Of a stretch of DNA of 64,000 nucleotides, positions 2,418-63,637 are shown one piece after another. Source of the DNA: Octopus vulgaris (lineage: Eukaryota); the NCBI GenBank assembly GCA_951406725.2, contig OX597818.1, positions 21,266,001 to 21,330,000 of the forward strand, given 5' to 3'. Position 1 is the first letter of the stretch. Each line of letters begins with the position of its first letter. The notes under the pieces are model-generated. The model worked only from the letters and a program-made list of their open reading frames with translations. It searched no databases and was not told the origin of the DNA. A program made the position numbers and the translations under genes.

Positions 2418-4047
2418 TCACTGGTCTTGCCGGGTCTTCTCACGCACAGCATACTTCCATAGGTCTCGGTCTCTGGTCATTTCCTTGGTGAGACCTAGAG
2501 TTCGAAGGTCGTGCTTCACCACCTCGACCCAGGTTTTCCTGGGTCTACCTCTTCCACAGGTCCCCTCAACTGCCAGGGTGTGGCACTTTTTCACACACCT
2601 ATCTTCATCCATTCTCACCACATGACCATACCAGCGCAATCGTCTCTCTTGCACACAACATCTGATTCCTCTTATGTCCAACTTTTCTCTCAAGGTACTT
2701 ACACTCTGTCGACTATGAACACTGACATTACACATCCAACGGAGCATACTAGCTTCATTTCTCGCGAGCTTACGCATGTCCTCAGCAGTCACGGCCCATG
2801 TTTCACTGCCATGTAGCATGGCTGTTCGTACACATGCATCATACAGTCTGCCTTTTACTCTGAGCGAGAGGCCTTTAGTCACCAACAGAGGTAAGAGCTC
2901 TCTAAACTTTGCCCAGGCTATTCTTACTCTAGCCGTTACACTTTCAAAACACCCACCCCCACTACTGACTTGGTCACCAAGATAACGGAAGCTATCAACT
3001 ACTTCTAGTTTTTCCCCCTGGAAAGTGACGGAAGTTGTTTTCTGCAGATTTTCAGAGGTTAATGCTCCCGAGCATCTGCCACATACAAAAACCATCTTCC
3101 TAGTTAGCCTTCCTATGACATTGCTGCACCTCTTATGTGTCCATAGCTTACACTTGGTGCATTTTATAGAGTTTCTACCTACACCTTTTCTACAGATCGA
3201 GCAGGGCCATCTACCTGAAGGCGTTTGTGATTTGTCTACCTTCCTACTTATTAGGACTTTGGTTTTAGCTAGGTTGACTCTAAGGCCCTTCGATTCTAAA
3301 CCATGCTTCCACACCTGAAACTTCTTCTCCAGTTCTGATAATGACTCAGCAATTAGAGCAAGGTCATCAGCATAGAGGAGCTCCCAGGGGCATCCTGTCT
3401 TGAATTCCTCCGTTATTGCCTGGAGGACTATGATAAATAGGAGGGGGCTGAGGACTGAGCCTTGGTGGACCCCTACCTCTACCCGGAATTCTTTACTGTA
3501 CTCATTTCCAACCCTCACCTTACTAGCAGCGTCCCTGTACATGGCTTGCACAGCTCTCACTAACCATTCTTCTATTCCTAGTTTCCTCATTGACCACCAT
3601 ATGAGGGATCGGGGGACCCTGTCGAAGGCTTTCTCCATGTCAACAAAAGCCAGGTACAGGGCCTTATCTTTTAGGTATTTCTCCTGCAGCTGCCTTACCA
3701 GGAATATAGCATCAGTGGTACTTTTCCCTGGCACGAAACCAAACTGCATCTCATCTAAACTAACTCTCTCTCTAATTAGTTGGCTTATGACCCTCTCTGT
3801 AACCTTCATCACCTGATCCAACAGCTTGATACCTCTGTAATTATTTGTATCTAGGGCATCACCTTTACCTTTGTAGCAGTTGACTATTATGCTGCTACAC
3901 CAGTCATTGGGTATGACTCCTTCATGTATCACCTGATTAACTATACAGGTGACTAGGCTATAGCCGACACTACCAGATATTTTGAGCATCTCTGCAGTGA
4001 TACCTGATGGGCCTGGGGCTTTCCCTGTCTTCATGCTTCTAATTGCC

Positions 4048-4049
<2 letters not shown>
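2418..4049 (-). CDS. Non-LTR reverse transcriptase (partial) with embedded PHD-like zinc finger
   Basis: KAPGPSGI, NYRGIKLL, QFGF, FVDMEKAFDRV, GVHQGSVLSPLLF, LYADD, FRYLG, LHGSETW, RRLRWYGHV, RGRPRKTW. The N-terminal IYIY run in the ORF track is microsatellite read-through. Confidence 0.93.
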
Positions 4050-4094
<45 letters not shown>

Positions 4095-4977
4095 CTTGAA
4101 CAGTACAAAACACATTGAGACCAGTGGTGTATAACAACATCAGATAGTCTGGCTGAAACCGTGATATATATATGCGTGAGTGTATATACATATACATACA
4201 TATATTTATTACATGTGCATGGAACTCCATTGGTTACAACAAGGGTTCCAGTTGATCCAATCAATGGAACAGCCTGTTCATAAAAATCAAAAAGCAAGTG
4301 GCTGAGCACACCACAAACATGCTTACCCTTAATGTAGTTCTAAAAGAGATTCAGCATGACACAGAATTTGACAAGGTTGGTCCTTTGAAATACAGGTACA
4401 ACTCATTTTTCCAGCTGAGTGGACTAGAGCAACATGAAATAAAAGTCTTGCTCAAGGACACAACACACTGCCATTAATCAGCTTACGACTGTGAGCTGAA
4501 TACGCTAACCACTTAAGCCAAGCACATTCACATGTATCTATATATATTTTTATACAAATATAAGTATATTAAGTATATGATTTAAGTTATAGAATGAAGT
4601 TCAACAAATTCAATCATATTTTTTATAAATGGAGGAGATTAGATGTTAATATGGTATAAATTATTTATACAAATATATATACATACATGCATACAAACAC
4701 ACACACACACTTATTTCCTCTCTTTTTTTGTGTGTGAAATACAGCGATTTTCTGTCTCTGGGTTGTAGACTTAATCTATATAACATCTTAACTGGTTTTT
4801 ACATGCTTTTAAGTGTTCCCCTGTGTTAAATCTATCCAGGTCAGATCTCCTCTGATAGGTGAGTTACTTCTCTCTCTCTTTCTCTCCCTTTTTCATTTTC
4901 TTTTGCCAACAGACTTAGAACATTGGTAGAAGGTATGATCATACCACTGTTTGTGTTAACATATTTAATGTACTGAG

Positions 4978-36727: not shown

Positions 36728-37407
36728 GAATGTCATAATTAACCTTAAAAAGTATGGGACTAGCATTGTTACTCAAAAATATTGGAATCACTATATGTTG
36801 TACATTCTGTGGCATCCTTTTATCACAAAAAATTTGTTTAATTCATCAAAATTAAGTTATATTAAAAATTAAGTTATCATATACACAATTTTAACAAAAC
36901 AATTGTGTACAAATGCTAATGTCATCTTTATGAAATAATTCAATCTATGAATGATATTTTTTATAAATTTATAAGTAATCAATCAAAAGTAATTTAGTAA
37001 TAATTTGCTTAATTGCATAACTATTCCATTAATATGTGTATCATAATGCAAATTATCTTTGCTTATAACTATTTCGGTTTCATACTTTCGCTGTTAAATA
37101 AATTCAACTTCATCATAAATCCTTTTTTTTTTTTTTAATGGTAACTTGCATGCAGTGTTAAGTATGTTTTTTTTTATATATATTGGTATGAAGAGTATTA
37201 TAATGAATTTACTTATTCGAAGTTAAAGATCATAATTTGAACATCTTCAAATTTTTATTTTAAGAACTTGGTTTAATAATTATCATGGCATCATAATTCA
37301 CACATGAGTCTCTTTTAAGATACCACAGAATGTACAGCATATAGTGATTCCAATATTTTTTAGCAACAATGCTAGTCTCATACTTTTTAAAGTTTATTAT
37401 GACATTC
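36728..37407. mobile_element. MITE/fold-back element with ~90-bp terminal inverted repeats and AT-rich core
   Basis: 36728-36819 is the reverse complement of 37317-37407 with few mismatches. Confidence 0.8.
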
Positions 37408-46198: not shown

Positions 46199-46586
46199 CA
46201 CATACGTTAAATTCAACTTACGTTGAAAGTCAACAAAGTAAGTTTGCTTTAGAAGCGTTGAGATGTATTGAAATATACAGATAAGGAAATAATTTTATTC
46301 TCAAATGTAGGATAATGCTAATAATATAGCATGAACAGGATAGACTATCCATATTTTGCAGAAAAATGTGTTGGTGGCCAGCCATGAGACTCAAACTCAC
46401 ATCCCTGTGATTACAATTCAAGTGCTTTACCATTAACCTAAACTGCCCAGCAACAAATTCAAGTCCCATGGCTGGCCACCAACAGATTATGGATAGTTTA
46501 TCCTGTTCATGCTATATTATTAGCATTATCCTGCGTTTGAGAATAAAATTATTTCCTTATCTGTATCTCTTATATATATATATATA

Positions 46587-49446: not shown

Positions 49447-50010
49447 ATCATCATCATTATTTAACATCCGCTTTCCATGCTAGCATGGGTTGGACGATTT
49501 GACTGAGGTCTGGCGAACCAGACTCCAATCTGATCTGGCAGAGTTTCTACAGCTGGATGCCCTTCCTAACGCCGACCACTCCGAGAGTGTAGTGGGTGCT
49601 TTTACGTGCCACCGGCACGAGGGCCAGTTTGGTGGTACTGACAACAGCCACACCCAAATGCTACTTTTTACATGCCACCTGCACAGGAGCCAGTCCAGCG
49701 GCACTGGCGATGACCTCGCTTGAATGTTTCACATACCACCAGCACAAGTGCTAGTAAGGCGACGTGGTAACGATCACGCTCGAATGGTGTGTTTAAACGT
49801 GCCATTGGCACGAAGGCCAGCTTGTTGCTCTAGCAATGATCTCACTCGTATGGTACTCTTTGCACTCCACTAGCAACGGATGCCAGTCACTGAGTTTGAT
49901 TTTGACTTCGATTTCACTTGCCTCAACTGGTCTTCGCAAGCAGAGTTTAGTGTCCAGTGAAGAAGAGGCATGCATAAATGGACTGGTTACACCCCTAGCA
50001 TAGGCCACAA
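49447..50010 (-). mobile_element. RTE 3'-end copy (tail plus several minisatellite units)
   Basis: (CAT)n..TTTCCATGCTAGCATGGGTTGGAC. Similar tails at about 10030, 12510, 15260, 20570, 24893, 27263, 29025, 33318, 33915, 37695, 42205, 52604 and 53523, and in + orientation at 14130, 55440, 56640 and 61075. Confidence 0.85.
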
Positions 50011-51590: not shown

Positions 51591-54038
51591 AAGCAGGTCT
51601 CTGATCATTGGCACTCCAGTCATGAATGTCTTTGTAAGGGCATCTTGGACTGTATTATTTCACTGTAACCTTTCCATTTTTTAAATTAACATCTGATTAA
51701 AAAATTTTAGCTGCTATTTCTAGCAGGTTGTGTGACTATTTAGAGGCTCTATTGTTGACCTGAATAAAACCCAACCTTACAAGCTAACAAACCACTGCAG
51801 CTGTTTACTGTGGCAAATACTTCTAATACCCTATTTAGAGCCAAGTGACCTGAGGATTTTGAGATTTAAGTGTCTATGCCAAGGGTAAAGTATGAGGCTA
51901 GCGACAAAATTTGAACCCATTAATCTCTCAACTGGTTGGTTCATTCATTTGTCTGCTACCCTCCATCATTGGTCATCCATTTAATCATATGCATTAAATT
52001 TAAATGCAATCACTAGCAGATTGAAATGTACTGCATATCAAAATATTTCTTATTCACTGTTACCACCTCTATTCTATATATAGCCATATAACCACTTGCC
52101 TGTAGGTTGTTATCTGTGTTTTGACACACATGCAGTGTGAAGTCTGAAACCACTTCCTGGCTGTTTGCTTCTGTTGAGTCAAATATGTAGAGTTTTACTT
52201 ACCTTCTTCAATGTGGTTTCTCTAAGAAGTAAATAGAATAGTTTGGATGGTGTTGTGCTCAGATCATGCAGAGCAGTGGGCTACTGCTGCTACCATTGCT
52301 ACTTTTACTACTGCAGCTATCACCACTTAATACTACTATTACTGCTACTACTCGTACCAGCTCTAAATATTTCATATTACTACTATTTTTACACTATCAC
52401 TATCATTACAGCAACTGCTACTGGTGTTTCCTCTAACTATTACTACTACTACTACTACTAATAGCGACTAATTACTAACAAAAGCAGGAGTTTGTAGAAT
52501 CAGTACCATGGCAAACAAAATGCTTAGCAACGTTTCCTTTGGCTTTACATTCTGAGTTCAAATTCCACCAAAGTTTGACTTTACCTTTCATCCTTCCAGA
52601 CTTCATCATCATCATTTAACATCCGTTTTCCATGCTAGCATGGGTTGGACAGTTCGACCAGGGTCTGGAAAGCCAGGAGGCTGCGCCAGGCTCCAGTCTG
52701 ATCTGGCAGTGTTTCTATAGCTGGATGCCCTTCCTAATGCCAACCACTCCATGAGTGTAGTGGGTGCTTTTTACGTGCCTCCGGCACAGGGGCCAGAGGG
52801 GGCTGGCAAACAGCCATGATCGGTTGGTGCTTTTTACGTGTCACCAGCACAGATATCACAACTACAATTTCCATTTGATTTTTATTTTGATGTTGGTGTT
52901 GACGTACTTGACTCAATGGGTCTCTTCAAGAACAGTGGGTCACTCTATGATCCAAGGTTAGCACAGCAGGCCGGATAAAATAAATACCAGTTGATGAACA
53001 CTGGGGTCAATGTAATTGACTTACCTAAATCACTAAAAATTGCCGTCTCTGTGCCAAAATGTAAAACCATTATGACTAACACTAATTAGTTATTATCACC
53101 ACAGTAAATTGGGTGTGGGTAATGTGATAAATTTATTTTCATGAAACAAAATCATAGGATTTTATTTTTTCTTTTCTTTTCATTTTACTGCTTTGCAACC
53201 ATTTCTCTTTTCTTGTCTGGCTGTGATGTGATGTTTTTGCCAATTGCAGATGCAATTTGTTTTACAAGTCAGTGTTATTCTTGCAGCTAGCCACTTAATC
53301 ATAACAAACTAGTGATGCCCGTTTTATGACAGTGTTAATATATCCTAATGTATGCCACTTTAAAAATGTAACTAGGAATGTGTGATGAGAAAAATAACTT
53401 GAAATTGTTTTTGTAATTTTTCCTAAAAATATGGGGAGACAACTTTAGTCATGTTTTTTGGTTTTATGACTTCATCAGTAAAACAGCTTTCAGTGTACTT
53501 GCTGAAGTTGTGATGAAAGGATCATAATCATCATTGTCATCTAACGTCTGCTTTCCATGCTGGCATGGGTTGGATGGTTTGACTGAGGATTGGTGAGCCA
53601 GAAGGCTGCACCAGGCACAATCTGATCCAGCAAAGTTTCTACAGCCAGATGCCCTTCCTAATGCCAACCACTCTGAGAGTGTAGTGGGTGTTTTACGTGC
53701 CACTAGTACAAGGGCTGGTCAGGCGGTTCTGGCAACGACCAAGCTCAAAAGGTGTTTTTTACGTGTTACCTGTGGAGGAGCCAGTCTGGCGGCACTGGCA
53801 ATGACCACACACGAATGTTATTTTCCACGGTAATGCTGGCAACGATCACACTCAAATGGGGCTTCTTATGTGCCACCGGCACGGGAGCCAATCCGTGGCC
53901 CTGGCAACGATCACGCTCGGATGTGCTTTTAGCGTTCCACTGGCACAAGTGCCAATCAGGCGGCACTGTCATCAGCCATGTCAGCGATTTTGATTTGATT
54001 TCACTTCCCTCAATAGGTCTTCACAAGCAAAGTTTATC

Positions 54039-54491
54039 GTCCCATGGAAGGAAGAATGCTACTGTTATTTAGCTCTAGGAAGCACCATTTCCTGTTGGAC
54101 TTGACACATTTCCTGTGTCCTTGTTTTCAAAGTGGAGTTAAGCATCTCCACCCAGCAAAACCAGCAACAAGAGACTAGTTTCAGAATCATTGCTCATCAT
54201 CAGTCTGGAGTAGCATGGCCTGCTAGCTGTCGATGCCTATCCGCCTTTGTAAACATATATATTTCAAGTGAAATGCATTCATTGATTTTTGAAAATAGAA
54301 ATAATACATTTCTAAATCTCTCAGAGATGACAAGCAATGACTCTGAAACTAGTCTCTGGGTGCTGGCTTTACTGAGTGGAGTTGCTTATCTCCATTTTGA
54401 AAACATAAGGACACAGGAAATGTGCCAAGTCGAACAGGAAATGGTGTTTCCTAGGGCTAAATAACAGTAGCATTCTTCCCTTTCATGGGAC
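54039..54491. mobile_element. Fold-back element with hammerhead cores (second family)
   Basis: Arms of about 170 bp (54039-54207 and 54322-54491); hammerhead motif at the inner end of each arm. Confidence 0.8.
54168..54208 (-). ncRNA. Minimal type-I hammerhead ribozyme motif
   Basis: CCAGA-CTGATGA-tgagcaatgattct-GAAA-CTAG-TC-TCTTG: intact core, palindromic stem III (ACTAGT), GUC cleavage triplet; stem II weak. Confidence 0.7.
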
Positions 54492-55438: not shown

Positions 55439-55740
55439 ATAAAAGCACCATCTGATTGTGGCCATTGCCAGCCTCGCCTGGCCCCCGTGCCAGTGGCACG
55501 TAAAAAAAGCACCATCCGATCATGGTCATTTGCCAGCCTCATCTGGCACCTGTGCTGGTGGCACATAAAAAGCACCCACTACACTCACGGAGTGGTTGGC
55601 GTTAGGAAGGGCATCCAGCCATAGAAGCACTGCCAGATCAGACTGGGCCTGGTGCAGCCTTCTGGTTTCCCAGACCCCAGTTGAACCGTCCAACCCATGC
55701 TAGCATGGAAAGCGGACGCTAAACGATGATAATGATGATA
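55439..55740 (+). mobile_element. RTE 3'-end copy, + orientation
   Basis: Reverse complement of 1655-1900; ends in (GAT)n. Confidence 0.88.
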
Positions 55741-55797
55741 TATGCTGTGATAAAAGTACCTGGTACACTCTTAAAAGTAGTTAACATTAAGAAGGAT

Positions 55798-56638
55798 ATC
55801 ATCATCATTTACCATCTGCTTTCTATGCTGGCATGGGTTAGATAGTTTGACTGAAAACTGGTAAGCTGGAGACCTGCACCAAGTTCCCTATCTGATTTAG
55901 CAAGGTTTCTACAGCTTGATGCCTTTCCTAATGCCAACCACTCCATTAATTTAACATCAGCATCGGCCATAACTACAGTCTCACTTGGTTTGAGAGGTCT
56001 ACGCAAGCATGGTATATCGCCAAAGGTCTTGGTCACCTATCACTGCCTCCATGAGGCCCAACACTCAAAAAGTGCCTTTTACATGCCAGTCACATAGTAC
56101 TGGCATCAGCCACGACTAAGATTTCACTCGGCTCAACAGGTCTTCACAAGCACATAATATTGCCCAACAATTGAAGAGTGCTTTTAACAGGCTGGTTACG
56201 CGACACTGACATTGGCCACGACTACAATCTCATTTTTCAAGCATGGTATATTGCCAAAGGTCTCAGTCAGTTGTCATTGCTTCTGTAAGGCCCAACATTC
56301 GAAGATCATGTTTCACCACCTCGTCCCATGTCTTCCTGGGTCTACCTCTTCTTCAGGTACCCTCTACCGTTAGAGTGCAACACTTCACACAGCTATCCTC
56401 ATCCATACACATCACATAACCATACCAGCACAGTCATCTCTCTTGCACACCTCATCTGATGCTTCTTGTGTCCAACTTTTCTTTCAGGATGTTCCCACTG
56501 TTGTGCATGCACACTGACATTACTAGCTTCATTTCTTACAAGCCTATACATGTCCTCAGCAGTCACAGCTCACGTTTCACTGCTATGTAGTATGGCTGTT
56601 CGCACATGGGCATCATGCAGTCTGCCTTTCACTCTCAA
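55798..56638 (-). mobile_element. RTE 3' fragment (ORF end plus variant 3' UTR with ~120-140 bp internal repeats)
   Basis: Matches the ORF end at 2500-2860; repeated GGCATCGGCCA..ACTAC..TCTCAC blocks at about 55960, 56100 and 56210. Confidence 0.8.
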
Positions 56639-57071: not shown

Positions 57072-58390
57072 GTAAGTAACTCTTTACAGTCTCTTCTCTT
57101 TTTTTAAAATCTTTGTATTAACAGCCAAGCAGTCTGGTGAATCCATAATCTCTTTTTGTAGCACATGTAGAATTTGAATTCAGCAATGCAAAACTAATTT
57201 GCTGGCCACTTGTAAAGTGTTATTCTTTTACTTATTTCAGTCATTTGACTGTGGCCATGCTGGAGCATCACCTTAAAGGGATTTTATAATCGAAGAATTC
57301 GACCCCAGGACTTATTCTTTGTAAGCTTAGTACTTATTCTATCGGTCTCTTTTGCCAAACCACTAAATTACAGGGATGTAAGCGAAGGTAGGGGGACAAA
57401 TATAGACACAAAGACACACACATAAATATATACATACACGACAGGCTTCTTTAAGTTTCCATCTACCAAATCCACTTGCAAGGCTTTGTTCAGCCCAAGG
57501 TGCCATATAGTGGGATTTGAACCCAGAACCATGTGGTTGGAAAGCAAGCTTCTTACCATACAGCCACACCTGTTCTTGCTCATTCTTCTGATTTTTACAT
57601 CCATTTATTTTTTTCCTCTTCAGTTCTCATGTTTCTTCATCATCTGCTAGAAAAAAACAGGCATGTCAAGCTTTATTTTGTGGGCAGTGGGTATCACAAC
57701 CTTACAATAATCAGTTTCTTTATAGTGTGTAGCCCTAGAGAGGTCAGCAGTAGATATAAAGAACCTGCTCTACTTTTGCCCTCATTGCTTCCTGCAAAAG
57801 TTACGTCATACTCTGTTTGTTCTGTTTTCAGCAGGTATTTTGTGGATCGATGCATTTCTGTCACCAACCACTTTTAGACCATGGACTGGATATATTTTAT
57901 CATCTCATGGCACTAGAAACTGTCACTGGCCTAGTTTGAGTGACATTAAGTAGTGACCTTTGGAGAAAGGAAAAAAATGAAAAAAAGAATTATCTCTGTC
58001 ACCATTGTTAACTCTTGTATCAGTCTAAACTTGGTACCCTTTCCTCTTATTCAGGAAGTTCCAGTAATTCTTATCTCAGAGTTTCACCCTATCCTGTCAC
58101 CATTGTAAGCATACAATGAGCATTTAAAAATAATGCTAACTCATATCTCTGACTAACTCACTGATAAGAATTTTATTTTATTACTGCTGTCGATTAATGC
58201 AAGTGGGTGACACTTTTCTATTAGCTTTGTAGGATAGGATGTGAACCATAAAATATTTGGATCTTTGGTCAGTTTTCCAACACTGTTGATTCAGTTAACA
58301 GCAACTCGTATATCCCTACCACAATAGAAATTAGATGAAAACTGCGGATGAGGAAAATCTAAAACTCTGTGTGTAAGGGTAAACTTGTAT

Positions 58391-58894
58391 GATACAGTTC
58401 TGTACTTAAGAGATGAGGAATTATGTACATTATTTACATTTGATGGATATTTATCCTCATCTTGTTTGTTGTTAACACAACACTTTGGCTGATATACCCT
58501 CCAGCTTTCATCAGGTGTCTTGGGAAAATTTTGAACCTGGGTTCACATTCCTAAGGTATTTTTCGATATTATTATTATTCGGGTCACTGCTTGGAATCGA
58601 ACTTGGAATCTTGGGGTTAGTAGCCCACGCTCTTAACCACTACGCCATATGCTAGTGGGCATATGACGTTGTGGTTAAGAGCGCGGGCTACTAACCCCAA
58701 GATTCCAAGTTCGATTCCAAGCAGTGACCTGAATAATAATAATAATAACAATAACATCGAAAATTACCTTAGGAATGAGAACCCAGGTTCAAAATTTCCC
58801 CAAGATACCTGATGAAGGCTGGAGGGTATATCAGCCAAAACATTGTGTTAACAACAAAGATGAGGGCAAATATCCATCAAATGTAAATAATGTA
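58391..58894. mobile_element. Palindromic tRNA-head plus hammerhead element (putative non-autonomous Penelope-like)
   Basis: Arms 58426-58652 and 58659-58894; A/B boxes on both strands; CTGATGA-stem II-(G)AAA core in both arms; unpaired tail at 58391-58425. Confidence 0.8.
58804..58849 (+). ncRNA. Decayed minimal type-I hammerhead motif
   Basis: GATAC-CTGATGA-A-GGCTG-gagggtatat-CAGCC-AAAA-CATT-GTGTT. Four-copy consensus inferred as ...CAGCC-GAAA-CGTT-GTGTT; differences here are CpG transitions. Confidence 0.65.
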
Positions 58895-59392
58895 AACAAG
58901 CTTGTATAAGTTGTCAACGTCTAATAGTAGAGACAAGGTGAAAAAATTTTACAAAACTATTTCTGCTAGCCACAGAGATTTTCTGTCTGGGCAAATGACT
59001 GATTATATGATTGTGGGCCAGCTGTGTTAACTATAGAGAATATGCAAAAGTTGAATAGAATTGAAGCAAACATGCTTCATTAGATATATAATTCCAGTGT
59101 TTACAAACAGTTGAAGACATGTGATCAGAGAGAAAAAAAGAGCATTAGAGGACTTAACTATTGTGCTCAAGTTCAAAAGAGAAAACCACTATTACAAACA
59201 TGTGATGCATATGAAATACTAGGTTGGACACCAAACAGACAAACTAAGTAAATAAATGGTGAAGTTACCTATAGCTATGAGTTTGTTATGTTAAAGTAGA
59301 CACACTTGGGAAGTGATGGCCTTTTGCCTATAGTTATAAAACACTCATAATTATGCTCTACAACTAGGTGGTTCAGGACAGAGGATAGAAAA

Positions 59393-59617
59393 TAGTTCTA
59401 TATTTAAGGGATGAGGAATTATGTATATTATTTACATTTGACAGATATTTGTCCTCATCTTGTTTGTTGTTAACACATTTCAGCTGATATACCTTCCAGC
59501 CTTCATCAGGTGTCTTGGAGAAATTTTGAAACTGATGAAGGCTGGAGGGTATATCAGCTGAAACGTGTTAACAACAAACAAGATGAGGACAAATATCCAT
59601 CAAATGTAAATAATGTA
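59393..59617. mobile_element. Second copy of the same family lacking the tRNA heads, with 13-bp TSD
   Basis: TSD AGAGGATAGAAAA at 59380-59392 and 59618-59630; same tail and same right terminus (AATGTAAATAATGTA). Confidence 0.85.
59532..59572 (+). ncRNA. Hammerhead core in copy 2
   Basis: CTGATGA-A-GGCTG-gagggtatat-CAGCT-GAAAC-GTGTT; core intact but stem I 5' strand and cleavage triplet altered. Confidence 0.6.
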
Positions 59618-59813
59618 AGAGGATAGAAAAGCCCATGTTTTCAAATTTGATATTACCATTTTGGAATTTGTTTACATACACTCACACTCAGCCCTAATGT
59701 ATTTTTCATCTCGTGTAGGGGAACATTTCTTAAGAAATGGACCAGATTTAATTCTCTTGTCTATGTGATTCACCTTCTTTTACCTTTGACTCAACATTCC
59801 TTTGCTAAATTAA

Positions 59814-60033
59814 CCCTCTAGCATTCAAACCAGCCATGCCTGGCCCAAATGTTCTACCAGTTTTATGTTCAAACTAGCCAGATCCAGCCTCTCGCACCTT
59901 TCCTACCATGTCATTCTAAAAATAAACTATCACATCATTGAAATCTTGAAGTTACAATACAATGCATGATTAATTTATAGCTATGTGAACAAATAAGCAT
60001 TACATTTATTAGAATAATCTAAATGCCAAAGGT
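59814..60033. mobile_element. piggyBac-like TTAA MITE
   Basis: TTAA-CCCTCTAGCATT...AATGCCAAAGGT-TTAA; inverted sister copy at 26587-26808 (also TTAA-flanked) and a partial copy at about 28830-29020. Confidence 0.75.
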
Positions 60034-60663
60034 TTAAACTTGGTTGAATTTTTCCTCCTACTCCAATTGTTGTCCATTATTCAACTTTTGACCCTACCTT
60101 TTGCACCACTTGGTGTGTGACAAAAATTAGTTTAGCTTCTTTTTTCTTAAGTTTTGAACTGCAACTACTATCTGATACTGTTTTGAACTACAACTACTAT
60201 CTGATACTGCCCTGTGTAGTGTCAAATAAAAGAGCACCAATTTAATATTGCTTTTAAATAAGTTTTAATCAAAGACTAATCATATATGGACATTATAACT
60301 CTGACTTGAAACAAGAGAAACAGCCGACAATACTAAAACCACGTGTTGTTTGTGAAGTGACTACTTTATCGAGTGAAGAATTTTCTACTAAAAGTGCTAA
60401 AATCACTTTTCATTTGACTTAAACATTTTTACAAGAGTCTGTAAAATATATTACAGCATGCTTGTTATTCAATATCAAGTTAGGTGCTATATTGAGCTTT
60501 TGCCAGTTTAACTGTAGTATTTATCCCTGCAAGGACTATAGTTAGTTTGCTTAAAATGACTAATAATACAATTTACATTAAATTCTTACCAGTTAATTAA
60601 CAACTAACATATTAAAATACATGATTTAAAGTTTCTTTTGTTTTATTTCTCTTTTCTGTAAAG

Positions 60664-60853
60664 TTGGAGATGTTTGGTGTTGGGGAGCCAATAATCACGG
60701 ACAACTAGGCGTGGGAATGAACTCGGAACAATGTGATAGACCGCGGCATTTAATATGTCTACGTGGAATACCTGTGGCTCAAATCGCTGCAGGTGATTAC
60801 CATAGTTTTATTATGTCAAAATCAGGAGCAATCTTTGGGTGGGGAAGAAACAG
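60664..60853 (+). CDS. HERC4: HERC4-like coding exon 4
   Basis: Long pyrimidine tract plus AAG acceptor; IGDVWCWGANNHGQLGVG...LRGIPVAQIAAGDYHSFIMSKSGAIFGWGRN (SGAIFGWGRN matches HERC4 from recall); donor GTGAGT at 60854; 190 nt, phase 1 to 2. Confidence 0.9.
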
Positions 60854-61073
60854 GTGAGTTATGCTGCTAGTGTTTTATTTTTCTAGCCCATTTGTATTCA
60901 TGATTTTTCAAAAAAAGTTTATTTTATTTTCTGTAGCAGTTTTTGACTAAAGAAAACTAATACACAATGTACTTACACAAATATGTGCACAAAACCATTA
61001 CAACTGTTAGACACACACACATAGTCTATGATCTTTTTTTTTTAATTATTTGTAATCCCACATATATAATACG

Positions 61074-61362
61074 TGGCCGATGCCAGCGCCGCCTCGACTG
61101 GCTTCCGTGCCGGTGGCACATAAAATACACCAATCTGACCGTGGCAGTTGCCAGCCTCGCATGGCACCTGTACAGGTGGCACGTAAAAAGCACCCACTAC
61201 ACTCACGGAGTGGTTGGCGTTAGGAAGGGCATCCAGCTGTAGAAACATTGCCAGATAAGACTGGAGCCTGGTGCAGCCTTCTGGCTTCCCAGATCCCCGG
61301 TCGAACCGTCCAACCCATGCTAGCATGGAGAATGGACGTTAAACGATGATGATGATGATGAT
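61074..61362 (+). mobile_element. RTE 3'-end copy, + orientation
   Basis: Near-identical to 55439-55740; (GAT)n tail. Confidence 0.88.
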
Positions 61363-61460
61363 AACTAAGATTGTATCCTAAAGTGTAGCCTTTTCCTCCA
61401 GAACTAGAAAGTACTTCAGCTTTGATTAGTTGCTGATCCCCTACATACTGCTCACATATA

Positions 61461-61675
61461 CAAGGGTGTACTGAAAAGTTCCTGATTTTGGGTAAAAGAA
61501 AATACAGGAGAATCAGTTAATTATGGTTCTATTCAACATATTCTCTTCTCAGATCCACGATTATTGTAGTGATCCTTCAGTTTTTCTAAGCCCTGTAAAA
61601 TAACTCAGACAGTTGGGCCTCTAACCAGGCTTTTTGTGATACCCTTAAAGCCAGGAACTTATCAGCACCCTCTCA
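61461..61675. mobile_element. Mariner-type MITE
   Basis: TA-flanked TIRs CAAGGGTGTACTGAAAAGTTCCTG and CCAGGAACTTATCAGCACCCTCTCA. Confidence 0.75.
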
Positions 61676-61676
61676 T

Positions 61677-63637
61677 ATCATCATCATCATCATTTAATGT
61701 CCACTTTCCATGCTGGCATGGGTTGGATGGTTTGACTGAGGACTGGCATGCTGGAAAGCTGCATCAGGCTCCAATCTGATTTGGCATGGTTTCTACAGCT
61801 GGATGCTCTTCCTAACACCAACCACTCTGAGAGTGTAGTGGGTACTTTTTACATGCCACCGGCACAGGAACCAATCAGTACTGGCATTGGTCACGCTCAA
61901 ATGGTGATTTTTATGTGCTACCAGCAAGCAGTACTGGCATCAGCAATGCTTGAATGGTGCTTTTTACATGCCACCTGCACAGGTGCCAGTCAGGTGGCAC
62001 TGGCATTGGCCATGGCTACAATTTCCCTCGGTTCAACAGGCCTTCACAGGCACAACATATTGCCAAACAATTGAAAGGTGCTTTTAAATGGCCAGTTATG
62101 CAACCCCGGCATCGGCCATAACTACGAGGTCACTTGGCTTGCCAGGTCTTCTCAAGCACAGCATATCTCCAAAAGTCTCGGTTGCTTGTCATTCCCTCTA
62201 TGAGGCCTCATCCCATGTTTTCCTGGGTCTACCTCTTCCACAGGTTCCCTCCACTGTTAGGGTATGACACTTCACACAGCTGTCCTCACCCATACACAAC
62301 ACATGACCATACCAGCACAGTCGTCTCCCCTGCACACCACATCTGATGCTTATCAACAACTTTTCTTTCAGTGTGCTTACACTCGGTCATGTATGCACAC
62401 TGACATTACACATCCAGCAGAGTATACTAGCTTCATTTCTTTCAAGACTATGCATATCCTCAGCAGTCACAGCCCATGTTTCACTCCCGTATAGCATGGC
62501 AGTTCGCACACCTTTCACTCTCAGTGAGAGGCCCTTTGTTACCAACAAAGGTAGCAGCTCTCTGAACTTTGCCCTGGCTATTCTTATTCTAGCAGCTACA
62601 CTTACAGAGCATCCACTCCCTGCTACTGACTTGGTCACTTAGGTAACGGAAGCTATCAATTACTTCTAGTTTTTCCTCTTGGCATGTGATGGAATCTGTT
62701 TTCTGTACATCTTCGGTGTTTATTGCATCTGTGCATCTGCCACACACAAAACCTATCTTCCCAGATATTCCTTTGATATTGCTGCACCTCTTATGTGTTC
62801 ATAGCTTACACCAGGTACATCTTATAGAGTTTCTATCTATGCTTTTTCTTCAAATTGGGCCATCTACCTGAAGGATTTGTGATTTGTCCGCCTCCCTACT
62901 TACTAAGACTTTGGTTTTTGCTAGGTTAACTCTAAGGCCCTTCGATTCTAGACCTTACTTCCACATTTGAAGCTTTTTCTCTAGGTCTGGTAGTGATTCA
63001 GCTAGTAGAGCAAGATCATCAGCATAGAAAAGCTCCCAGGGGTAACCTCTCTTGAATTCCTCTGTTATTGCCTGGAGGATTATGATGAACAAGAAGGAGC
63101 TGAGGACTGATCCCTGGTGAACCCCTAGTTCTACCCAAAATTCTTTCCTATACTCGTTGCCAACCCTCACCTTACTGACAGCATCCCTGCACATGGCTTG
63201 TACAGCTCTCACCAACCTATCTCTAGTTTCCACATTGACCACCAAATAAGGGATCGCGGGACCCTGTCAAAGGCTTTCTCCATGTCAATGGAAGCCAAGT
63301 ACAGAGGTTTATCTTTAGCCAAGAATTTCTCCTGCAGCTGTCTTACCAGAAATATAGCATCAGTGGTGCTTTTCCCTGGTACAAACCCAAACTACATCTC
63401 ATCTAAACTAACTCTCTCGTTTCATCACCTGATCTAACAATTTAATATCTCTGTAATTATTTCTATCTAATATGTCACCTTTACCTTTGTAGCAGTTGAC
63501 TATGGTGCTGCTACACCACTCATTGGGTATGGCTCCTTCGTGTATCACCTGATTAACTATATGGGTGACTAGACTATAGCCTACAATGCCATATATTTTA
63601 AGCATCTCAGCAGTGATTCCTGATGGGCTGGGAGCAT
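61677..63637 (-). mobile_element. Degenerate 5'-truncated RTE LINE (same family as 1652-4050)
   Basis: Colinear with the first copy; fragments GVHQGSVLSSFLF, FYADD and LYGSETW broken by frameshifts; same 3' tail. Confidence 0.9.

Follow-up and report, generated by a model that had tools for sequence, protein, structure and literature searches.

A tRNA-headed octopus repeat with a hammerhead motif, probably inserted by the enzymes of a Penelope-like element

What kind of element leaves a palindrome between perfect direct repeats, and by what route does it enter the genome? The question is raised by a 64 kb stretch of Octopus vulgaris DNA (contig OX597818.1, positions 21,266,001 to 21,330,000; hereafter the window, on whose numbering all element coordinates are given), which carries just two copies of one repeat, at 58392-58894 (copy 1) and 59393-59617 (copy 2). 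An earlier note, made from the sequence alone, had taken copy 2 for a mobile ribozyme palindrome with defined ends. We consider it quite probable that 59393-59617 is one insertion of a non-autonomous retroelement, moved by the reverse transcriptase (RT) and GIY-YIG endonuclease of a Penelope-like element (PLE); the mobile RNA would be a single arm of ~265 nt, and the palindrome would have formed during insertion. The parts of copy 2 are as follows.

59380..59392, plus strand: left target-site duplication (TSD), 13 bp, an exact match to 59618-59630
59393..59423, minus strand: one-sided tail of copy 2, 31 nt, 29/34 identical to 58392-58425; 34 nt at the modal end of the family
59424..59534, minus strand: long, tailed arm of copy 2, truncated 25 nt upstream of the hammerhead core at 59503-59509 (four-arm alignment)
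59530..59534, no strand: head-to-head junction on microhomology; CTG shared, or the 5 nt ACCTG by comparison with copy 1
59532..59617, plus strand: short, untailed arm of copy 2; starts at the CTGATGA core, lacks the 5' strand of stem I, and has a 3-nt deletion that removes the cleavage triplet
59618..59630, plus strand: right TSD, 13 bp, an exact match to 59380-59392

The 13-mer AGAGGATAGAAAA occurs exactly at 59380-59392 and 59618-59630 and has no third site on either strand of the window. The chance of such a direct repeat of AGAGGATAGAAAA is ~6.5e-7 given the local base composition and 21 allowed registers, and of 200,000 pairs of positions drawn at random from the window, microsatellite zones included, 137 showed direct matches of at least 13 (0.0007). 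The TSD proposed around 59393-59617 is therefore borne out, being exact, present in two places only and far beyond chance.

The ends and the interior required some correction. The two arms of copy 2 (59424-59509 and 59532-59617) show 5 mismatches in 86 positions (5.8%). Copy 2 had been said to end at the same nucleotide as copy 1; the two do share the right-end nucleotide, 85 nt past the core start (58894 and 59617), but not the left-end one, where tails of 34 nt (58392-58425) and 31 nt (59393-59423) put the ends 3 nt apart. Two of the last three TSD bases match the tail end of the family. The one-sided tail common to both copies, also proposed earlier, is clear, with agreement at 29 of 34 positions. 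An inversion point just upstream of the core holds only in part: there is no single point, the right arm beginning at the core (59532) and the left arm passing its own core by 25 nt to reach 59534. Copy 2 is headless, as had been noted: the tRNA-like head is missing from its arms, the long arm being truncated 25 nt upstream of the core and the short arm beginning at it. The junction 5-mer ACCTG (59530-59534) is complementary to CAGGT at 59507-59511, and the predicted hairpin of copy 2 has 97 pairs (-139 kcal/mol).

Copy 1 consists of two full-length arms, head to head, with a predicted hairpin of 223 pairs (-363 kcal/mol).

58381..58392, plus strand: possible degenerate TSD of copy 1; partner at 58898-58909, 10/12 match, suggestive only
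58392..58655, minus strand: full-length tailed arm, with tRNA-like head, (AAT)n linker, hammerhead-type region and 34-nt tail
58656..58894, plus strand: full-length untailed arm; tRNA-like head 58656-58735, core at 58809

The weaker TSD suggested for copy 1 is consistent with its 10/12 match and an empirical P of ~0.006 over 49 registers, but it begins 3 nt beyond the end of the element. It is plausible rather than proof, since at the arm divergence of copy 1 at least two TSD mismatches are expected with a probability of ~0.2.

Evidence on the wider family comes from contigs of four of the 24 listed runs (X5, X7, X8 and X13), one for each of the related organisms B to E; no RNA data set was listed for the window, which carries no information about expression. 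The repeat is a very large family: in X5 the single-copy flanks have a depth of ~54 and the element bins 1.9-4.4 million, a ratio of 35,000-82,000 in summed contig depth, which is not a copy number. The depth of the tRNA-like head is of the same order as that of the 3' part. Among the 24 loose contig ends listed of 3,920, ends pile up at 59618 in all four runs (270, 233, 193 and 224 contigs) and at 58392 in X5 (167), X7 (153) and X8 (115), the latter position not being among those listed for X13. The family has two fixed 3' ends, 34 nt apart (58392 and 59618).

Contig joints locate the other end of the arm. Ten of the 15 joints listed (of 708) begin at the 5' end of the tRNA-like head, at 58648-58660. 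Fourteen inner-junction positions, between -27 and +68 when counted from the core, were obtained from 10 of these listed joints and from four of 12 listed in a second table (of 553). Because the joints start at the 5' end of the head yet land at 14 positions, inner junctions vary in the family while the 5' end of the RNA is fixed. The proposal of fixed outer ends with a variable inner junction thus agrees with the pile-up of loose ends at 58392 and 59618 and with the 14 junction positions. Like the junction of copy 2, three of these positions coincide with the start of the core, and another two with the predicted hammerhead cleavage site (+32/+33), which hints that cleaved RNA may now and then serve as template. 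A GTTAAC palindrome stands just after this site and two further joints are centred on it; the TGTTAACA palindrome would confound any excess of junctions at +32/+33. One joint, from 58652 to 58877, is identical in all four runs and is found at several times single-copy depth (847 in X5 and 1039 in X13 vs ~50), which suggests a two-armed unit that has itself been re-amplified.

The insertion at copy 2 is old and probably fixed. Its junctions are present in all four runs (in X7 the right side only), mostly reaching 20-27 letters into the element; the 31 letters by which a contig is called as bridging are reached by the left junction of X5 only. The flanks diverge from the window by 1.6% in X5, 3.6% in X8 and 4.7% in X13, and the right TSD (59618-59630) is unchanged in the orthologous contigs of X5 and X7, with records 14 and 22 differing by three letters, all further right. 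At the published octopus substitution rate of 0.0036 per million years (My) (PMC13282606), the arm divergence of 5.8% corresponds to ~8 My, over which the 13-mer would stay perfect with a probability of 0.46.

Two protein matches that contain a translation of the repeat place the family in Octopus, and the core pattern had no match in metagenome, prokaryote-genome and viral collections. Both matches are O. bimaculoides gene models (P0001 and P0002), one of which has the repeat as the N-terminus of a dystrobrevin isoform, by exonisation or mis-annotation. Whole elements measure 225-503 bp, and a 50-aa stop-free frame in them, which has no Pfam family, was rejected as a gene, its two matches being these repeat-containing models. 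An ATG frame read through its stop had no protein match.

From the centre outward, the full arm of ~265 nt comprises a tRNA-like head with A and B boxes, (AAT)n, a linker of ~50 nt and the CTGATGA core. Beyond the core follow a bulged A, helix II (GGCTG/CAGCC), GAAA-CG-TT, GTGTT (which pairs with GACAC before the core) and an AC-rich run, and the 3' terminus is a stem-loop that encloses the untailed end and stops at the tailed one. This 3' region forms a more stable fold than its shuffles do (z -2.6 and -2.0). The family's common form has, at motif level, the PLE minimal hammerhead, of type I, i.e. the core, helices I and II, a palindromic 15.2/16.2 and an NUH triplet. The intact form was read from contigs, as GAAA-CG-TT in the loose-end consensus at 59477 and as GTT inserted at 59564 in each of the four runs. 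In the window, copy 1 carries A in place of G12 of the core on both arms; the arms of copy 2 have in common a C-to-T change and the 3-nt deletion that takes out the cleavage triplet. In copy 2, called a ribozyme palindrome in the earlier note, the hammerhead is thus broken on both arms. The shared 3-nt deletion suggests that both arms derive from one ribozyme-dead template, the alternative being gene conversion between the arms. A relaxed hammerhead scan of the window gave 11 matches vs 1-5 in each of 10 shuffles, catching three of the four arms and missing the 54203 motif described below, and is not decisive. Rfam matches to microRNAs (mir-944 and others), far below the gathering score, were set aside as hairpin artefacts.

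The tRNA-like head, with its A and B boxes, is probably an internal RNA polymerase III (Pol III) promoter, as judged from motifs. The boxes, identified by what we take to be their consensus, are present and correctly placed in both heads, one A box having mismatches, and the A/B box pair at 58602 is the sole such pair in the window, vs one in 20 shuffled windows. ARAGORN was run at default settings and at a relaxed threshold of 90; at the latter it calls a tRNA-like fold in the head of the copy 1 untailed arm and in none of 500 shuffles.

The insertion pattern is already known, since a head-to-head truncated arm, a one-sided tail, a long TSD and a minimal hammerhead make up the published PLE signature. 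Endonuclease-bearing (EN+) PLE insertions of the Penelope/Poseidon clade (Adineta vaga Pen2a, Anolis PAc) likewise have a head-to-head inverted, 5'-truncated arm and a one-sided tail of 30-40 nt (PMC3846280, PMC11167929, PMC8557442), and they share a long TSD (8-10 bp in A. vaga, 13 here), a hammerhead in the terminal repeat and an AC-rich 3' region. For A. vaga Pen2a an inverted pseudo-long terminal repeat (pLTR), a 31-bp tail and a 9-bp TSD are described (PMC3846280). The octopus element differs in having no open reading frame (ORF), in its length of ~265 nt and in a tRNA-like head with A and B boxes that replaces the pLTR promoter; no head-to-tail tandem of it was seen in the window. Its motif resembles the PLE minimal hammerhead (PMC4209133) in the CUGAUGA core, the bulged base (A) before helix II, the G-C first pair of helix II, the 5-bp helix I and, in the common form, the palindromic CG at 15.2/16.2. 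It departs from that model in a helix II of 5-6 bp vs 7-8 and in the mutation of all four window arms; self-cleavage, if any, would probably involve a dimer or help from protein.

PLE integration itself is debated, self-priming having been argued (PMC3846280) and two RT start sites shown (PMC11167929). According to Frangieh 2024, the tail is the spacing of two RT start sites, both strands are cut and extended, targets are AT-rich, and ribozyme activity is dispensable in vitro (PMC11167929). If the octopus family moves in this way, a full-length arm would be transcribed from the tRNA-like head, in keeping with the fixed 5' end of the genomic joints. The PLE enzyme would nick both strands of AT-rich DNA, 13 nt apart here to judge from the TSD, and the left 3'-OH would prime cDNA at the outer, tailed site, perhaps helped by the two-of-three-nucleotide match. 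The second arm, which ends at the inner, untailed site, would be made either when the other nick primes synthesis anew (second priming) or when the first cDNA folds back on itself (fold-back). The two 5'-truncated arms, joined in copy 2 on a microhomology of 3-5 nt, would then meet head to head, and gap filling would leave the TSD. Copy 2 does not separate the two routes to the second arm, because its tail is on the long arm and the junction 5-mer pairs either way. We lean slightly towards second priming, giving fold-back somewhat less than an even chance, because a tail at either terminus of an inserted copy (PMC8557442) and extension of both strands from two start sites have been published.

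The best surviving alternative, though an unlikely one, is a PLE-derived family of solo pLTR type with its own or a host Pol II promoter, in which the tRNA-like sequence is a captured passenger and the element is no short interspersed element (SINE). PLE pLTRs do take up unrelated sequence in trans (PMC3846280), and the head has no Rfam tRNA match; set against this are the A and B boxes in their correct places and the 10 of 15 listed joints that begin at the 5' end of the head, the expected start of a Pol III transcript.

An ordinary tRNA SINE, mobilised by a long interspersed element (LINE) and inverted by L1-like twin priming, has a very small chance of being correct. The tRNA-like head and 13-bp TSD are SINE-like, and RTE-type LINEs occur in the window. 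Twin priming inverts a non-overlapping 5' part, unlike the arms here, both of which carry the same 3' 86 nt; nor is there a poly(A) or terminal simple repeat, and the two fixed 3' ends 34 nt apart and the PLE-type hammerhead motif have no place in this explanation. Slightly less probable again are single-arm insertions that later became palindromes, by an adjacent second insertion or repair-driven inverted duplication, with arms homogenised by gene conversion. Conversion in the hairpin could explain the changes common to both arms, but a single TSD surrounds both, head-to-head joints recur in all four runs, and the second CpG differs independently between the arms despite the common 3-nt deletion. 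A fold-back or miniature inverted-repeat transposable element (MITE) moved by cut-and-paste is the least credible of all, since long inverted arms and a long TSD would suit it (Mutator-like DNA transposons have long terminal inverted repeats and 9-11 bp TSDs), but the termini are asymmetric by 31-34 nt rather than symmetric, the interior differs among copies (14 junctions) and the centre is a tRNA-like head whose 5' end is fixed. Two features led us to reject both L1-type twin priming and cut-and-paste: one 3' segment is present in both arms, and the termini lack symmetry. Of the mechanism proposed in the earlier note, i.e. target-primed reverse transcription with inversion, the priming at the target, long TSD, fixed outer ends, variable junctions and rejection of cut-and-paste were upheld; LINE-type twin priming, its nearest literal reading, was not.

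Several observations weigh against insertion of a Pol III-transcribed element by PLE enzymes. One clean TSD, the perfect 13-mer, was observed, plus one degenerate 12-mer, and no joint skipping the element, i.e. no empty site, was found among the 15 listed of 708 in the four runs. Protein searches with the element frames, which are weak searches, gave no RT-bearing match and no autonomous PLE sharing the 3' end of the element; as no such PLE was found, the partner is deduced from the geometry of the insertion. An intact hammerhead core is present in none of the four window arms, and shuffled sequences fold as well as the hammerhead regions do (z -0.1 to 1.1). Rfam has neither a hammerhead nor a tRNA match in the family, ARAGORN detects the head at the relaxed threshold only, in one of the two arms, with no default call, and a T4 run in one arm could terminate Pol III.

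By its features the element probably belongs with non-autonomous PLE derivatives, having an inverted head-to-head arm with variable 5' truncation and a one-sided tail of 30-40 nt. It lacks the ORF with RT and GIY-YIG endonuclease of an autonomous PLE. Its head is that of a tRNA-derived SINE (tRNA-related, with A and B boxes), a likeness weakened by the absent Rfam match, and it has neither the LINE-derived 3' end nor the poly(A) or simple-repeat tail of a classical SINE. It is SINE-like in its working but no classical LINE-dependent SINE, because its ends are two PLE-type sites.

The novelty may lie in this passenger of ~265 nt, a non-coding unit that joins a tRNA-like head to a PLE-type 3' end: a SINE apparently using PLE enzymes. 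The closest parallel in build is Schistosoma Sm-alpha/Sj-alpha, in which a tRNA-related, Pol III-type head is followed by a hammerhead, in tens of thousands of copies (PMC2770079, PMC6765202). Those elements are described as head-to-tail repeats released by the ribozyme, and the available text of these accounts gives no PLE tail, head-to-head insertion or PLE partner. Non-autonomous PLEs are known in Chlamydomonas, and the Chlamys elements are likewise short, non-coding and moved in trans, with 3' ends shared with a PLE; no tRNA head is described in the parts of these sources available (PMC8557442, PMC9977147). Animal non-LTR retrozymes are also short non-coding elements moved in trans, but they are tandem repeats with canonical type I hammerheads, with no tRNA head in the available description (PMC7229834). 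No PLE-dependent SINE appears in the available portions of PMC10886601, PMC6962438, PMC5786205 and PMC4758252, and no description of a tRNA-headed PLE passenger was found in the open-access literature, a search to which Repbase, Dfam, SINEBase and subscription papers are external.

The sequence is probably already catalogued somewhere as a SINE, given its abundance. Ohshima and Okada reportedly described octopus tRNA-derived SINEs in 1994, including OK and OR1. The present family is likened to OK, OR1 and OR2 by description only, as octopus, tRNA-derived and abundant, and it may be one of the Ohshima-Okada SINEs or an unclassified SINE in repeat libraries. OR2 is listed as a CORE-SINE (PMC4758252). 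PLEs cover 6.83% of the O. vulgaris assembly (PMC13282606), and repeat surveys of octopus treat its abundant SINEs and PLEs as distinct classes (PMC13282606, PMC8967140). The Zenodo O. vulgaris repeat library or published figure supplements could already contain the family.

Other parts of the window bear on its setting. An exon of a host gene lies 1 kb downstream of the copies.

60663..60854, plus strand: RCC1-repeat exon of the host gene (Pfam RCC1 E 7e-16; splice-like ends)

Copies 1 and 2 are probably located in an intron upstream of this exon. A second head-to-head element, of an unrelated family, lies at 46275-46566 (region 46205-46566), with arms 94% alike and the second arm truncated in the T-arm. 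Its tRNA-like head (46376-46447, minus strand) has an Rfam tRNA match at E 0.0012 (27.2 bits vs a cut-off of 29) and an ARAGORN call at the relaxed threshold, with none in 500 shuffles. A one-sided extension of ~70 nt stands on its long-arm side, (TA)n lies on both sides, and no hammerhead was seen; set in a (TA)n microsatellite, it resembles a Naiad-type PLE insertion. This one copy suggests that the tRNA-headed inverted arrangement is not unique.

A third head-to-head element, at 54039-54491, has arms 88.6% alike, and its short arm again begins near the core. Its hammerhead-like motif is a different one (minus strand, core at 54203, with GAAAC-TA-GTC and a stem I of 5 bp); no TSD was found around it, and its left end adjoins another repeat, a paralogue of which (49898-49955) resembles the element end. 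An isolated hammerhead-like motif at 53440-53480 (minus strand; core, bulged A, 5-bp helix, TAAA) has no second copy in the window. Another very abundant repeat lies at 59810-60040, with summed depth up to 0.8 million at 59846-59987 and two diverged copies at 26.6-26.8 kb and 28.8-29.0 kb. A dispersed repeat of ~290 bp has many window copies (61073-61998, 55461-55944 and others), sometimes as inverted pairs, and at 36728-37407 inverted arms of 89 bp (92%) flank an AT-rich 500-bp spacer, probably a MITE. A LINE RT frame of 573 aa, which we take to be RTE-like by resemblance, occupies 2418-4139 on the minus strand (RVT_1 E 3e-31, weak PHD), with decayed relatives at 56.0-56.6 kb and 62.0-63.4 kb.

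SINEs normally ride LINEs, a rule that would be widened by a SINE using PLE enzymes. PLE integration becomes testable, for instance as to which arm bears the tail, in a family as short as this one with its tens of thousands of two-armed copies. Octopus has an exceptionally high density of near-perfect double-stranded RNA (dsRNA) and of hyper-editing, and lizard Penelope is heavily edited (PMC5625713). Since each copy is a long hairpin on either strand, the family is a candidate dsRNA and editing substrate in octopus. More tentatively, and with somewhat less than an even chance of being right, octopus genomes may harbour a whole class of SINEs, tRNA-headed and of Pol III type, which are parasites of PLEs rather than of LINEs, with at least two unrelated families in this window (the hammerhead-bearing one and the hammerhead-free 46275-46566). 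Their junctions would then amount to a large natural record of how PLEs integrate, including the use of ribozyme-cleaved and ribozyme-dead RNA as templates. As insertion by PLE enzymes yields head-to-head palindromes, octopus introns would be seeded with tens of thousands of ready-made hairpins, which may be a main source of its dsRNA and hyper-editing.
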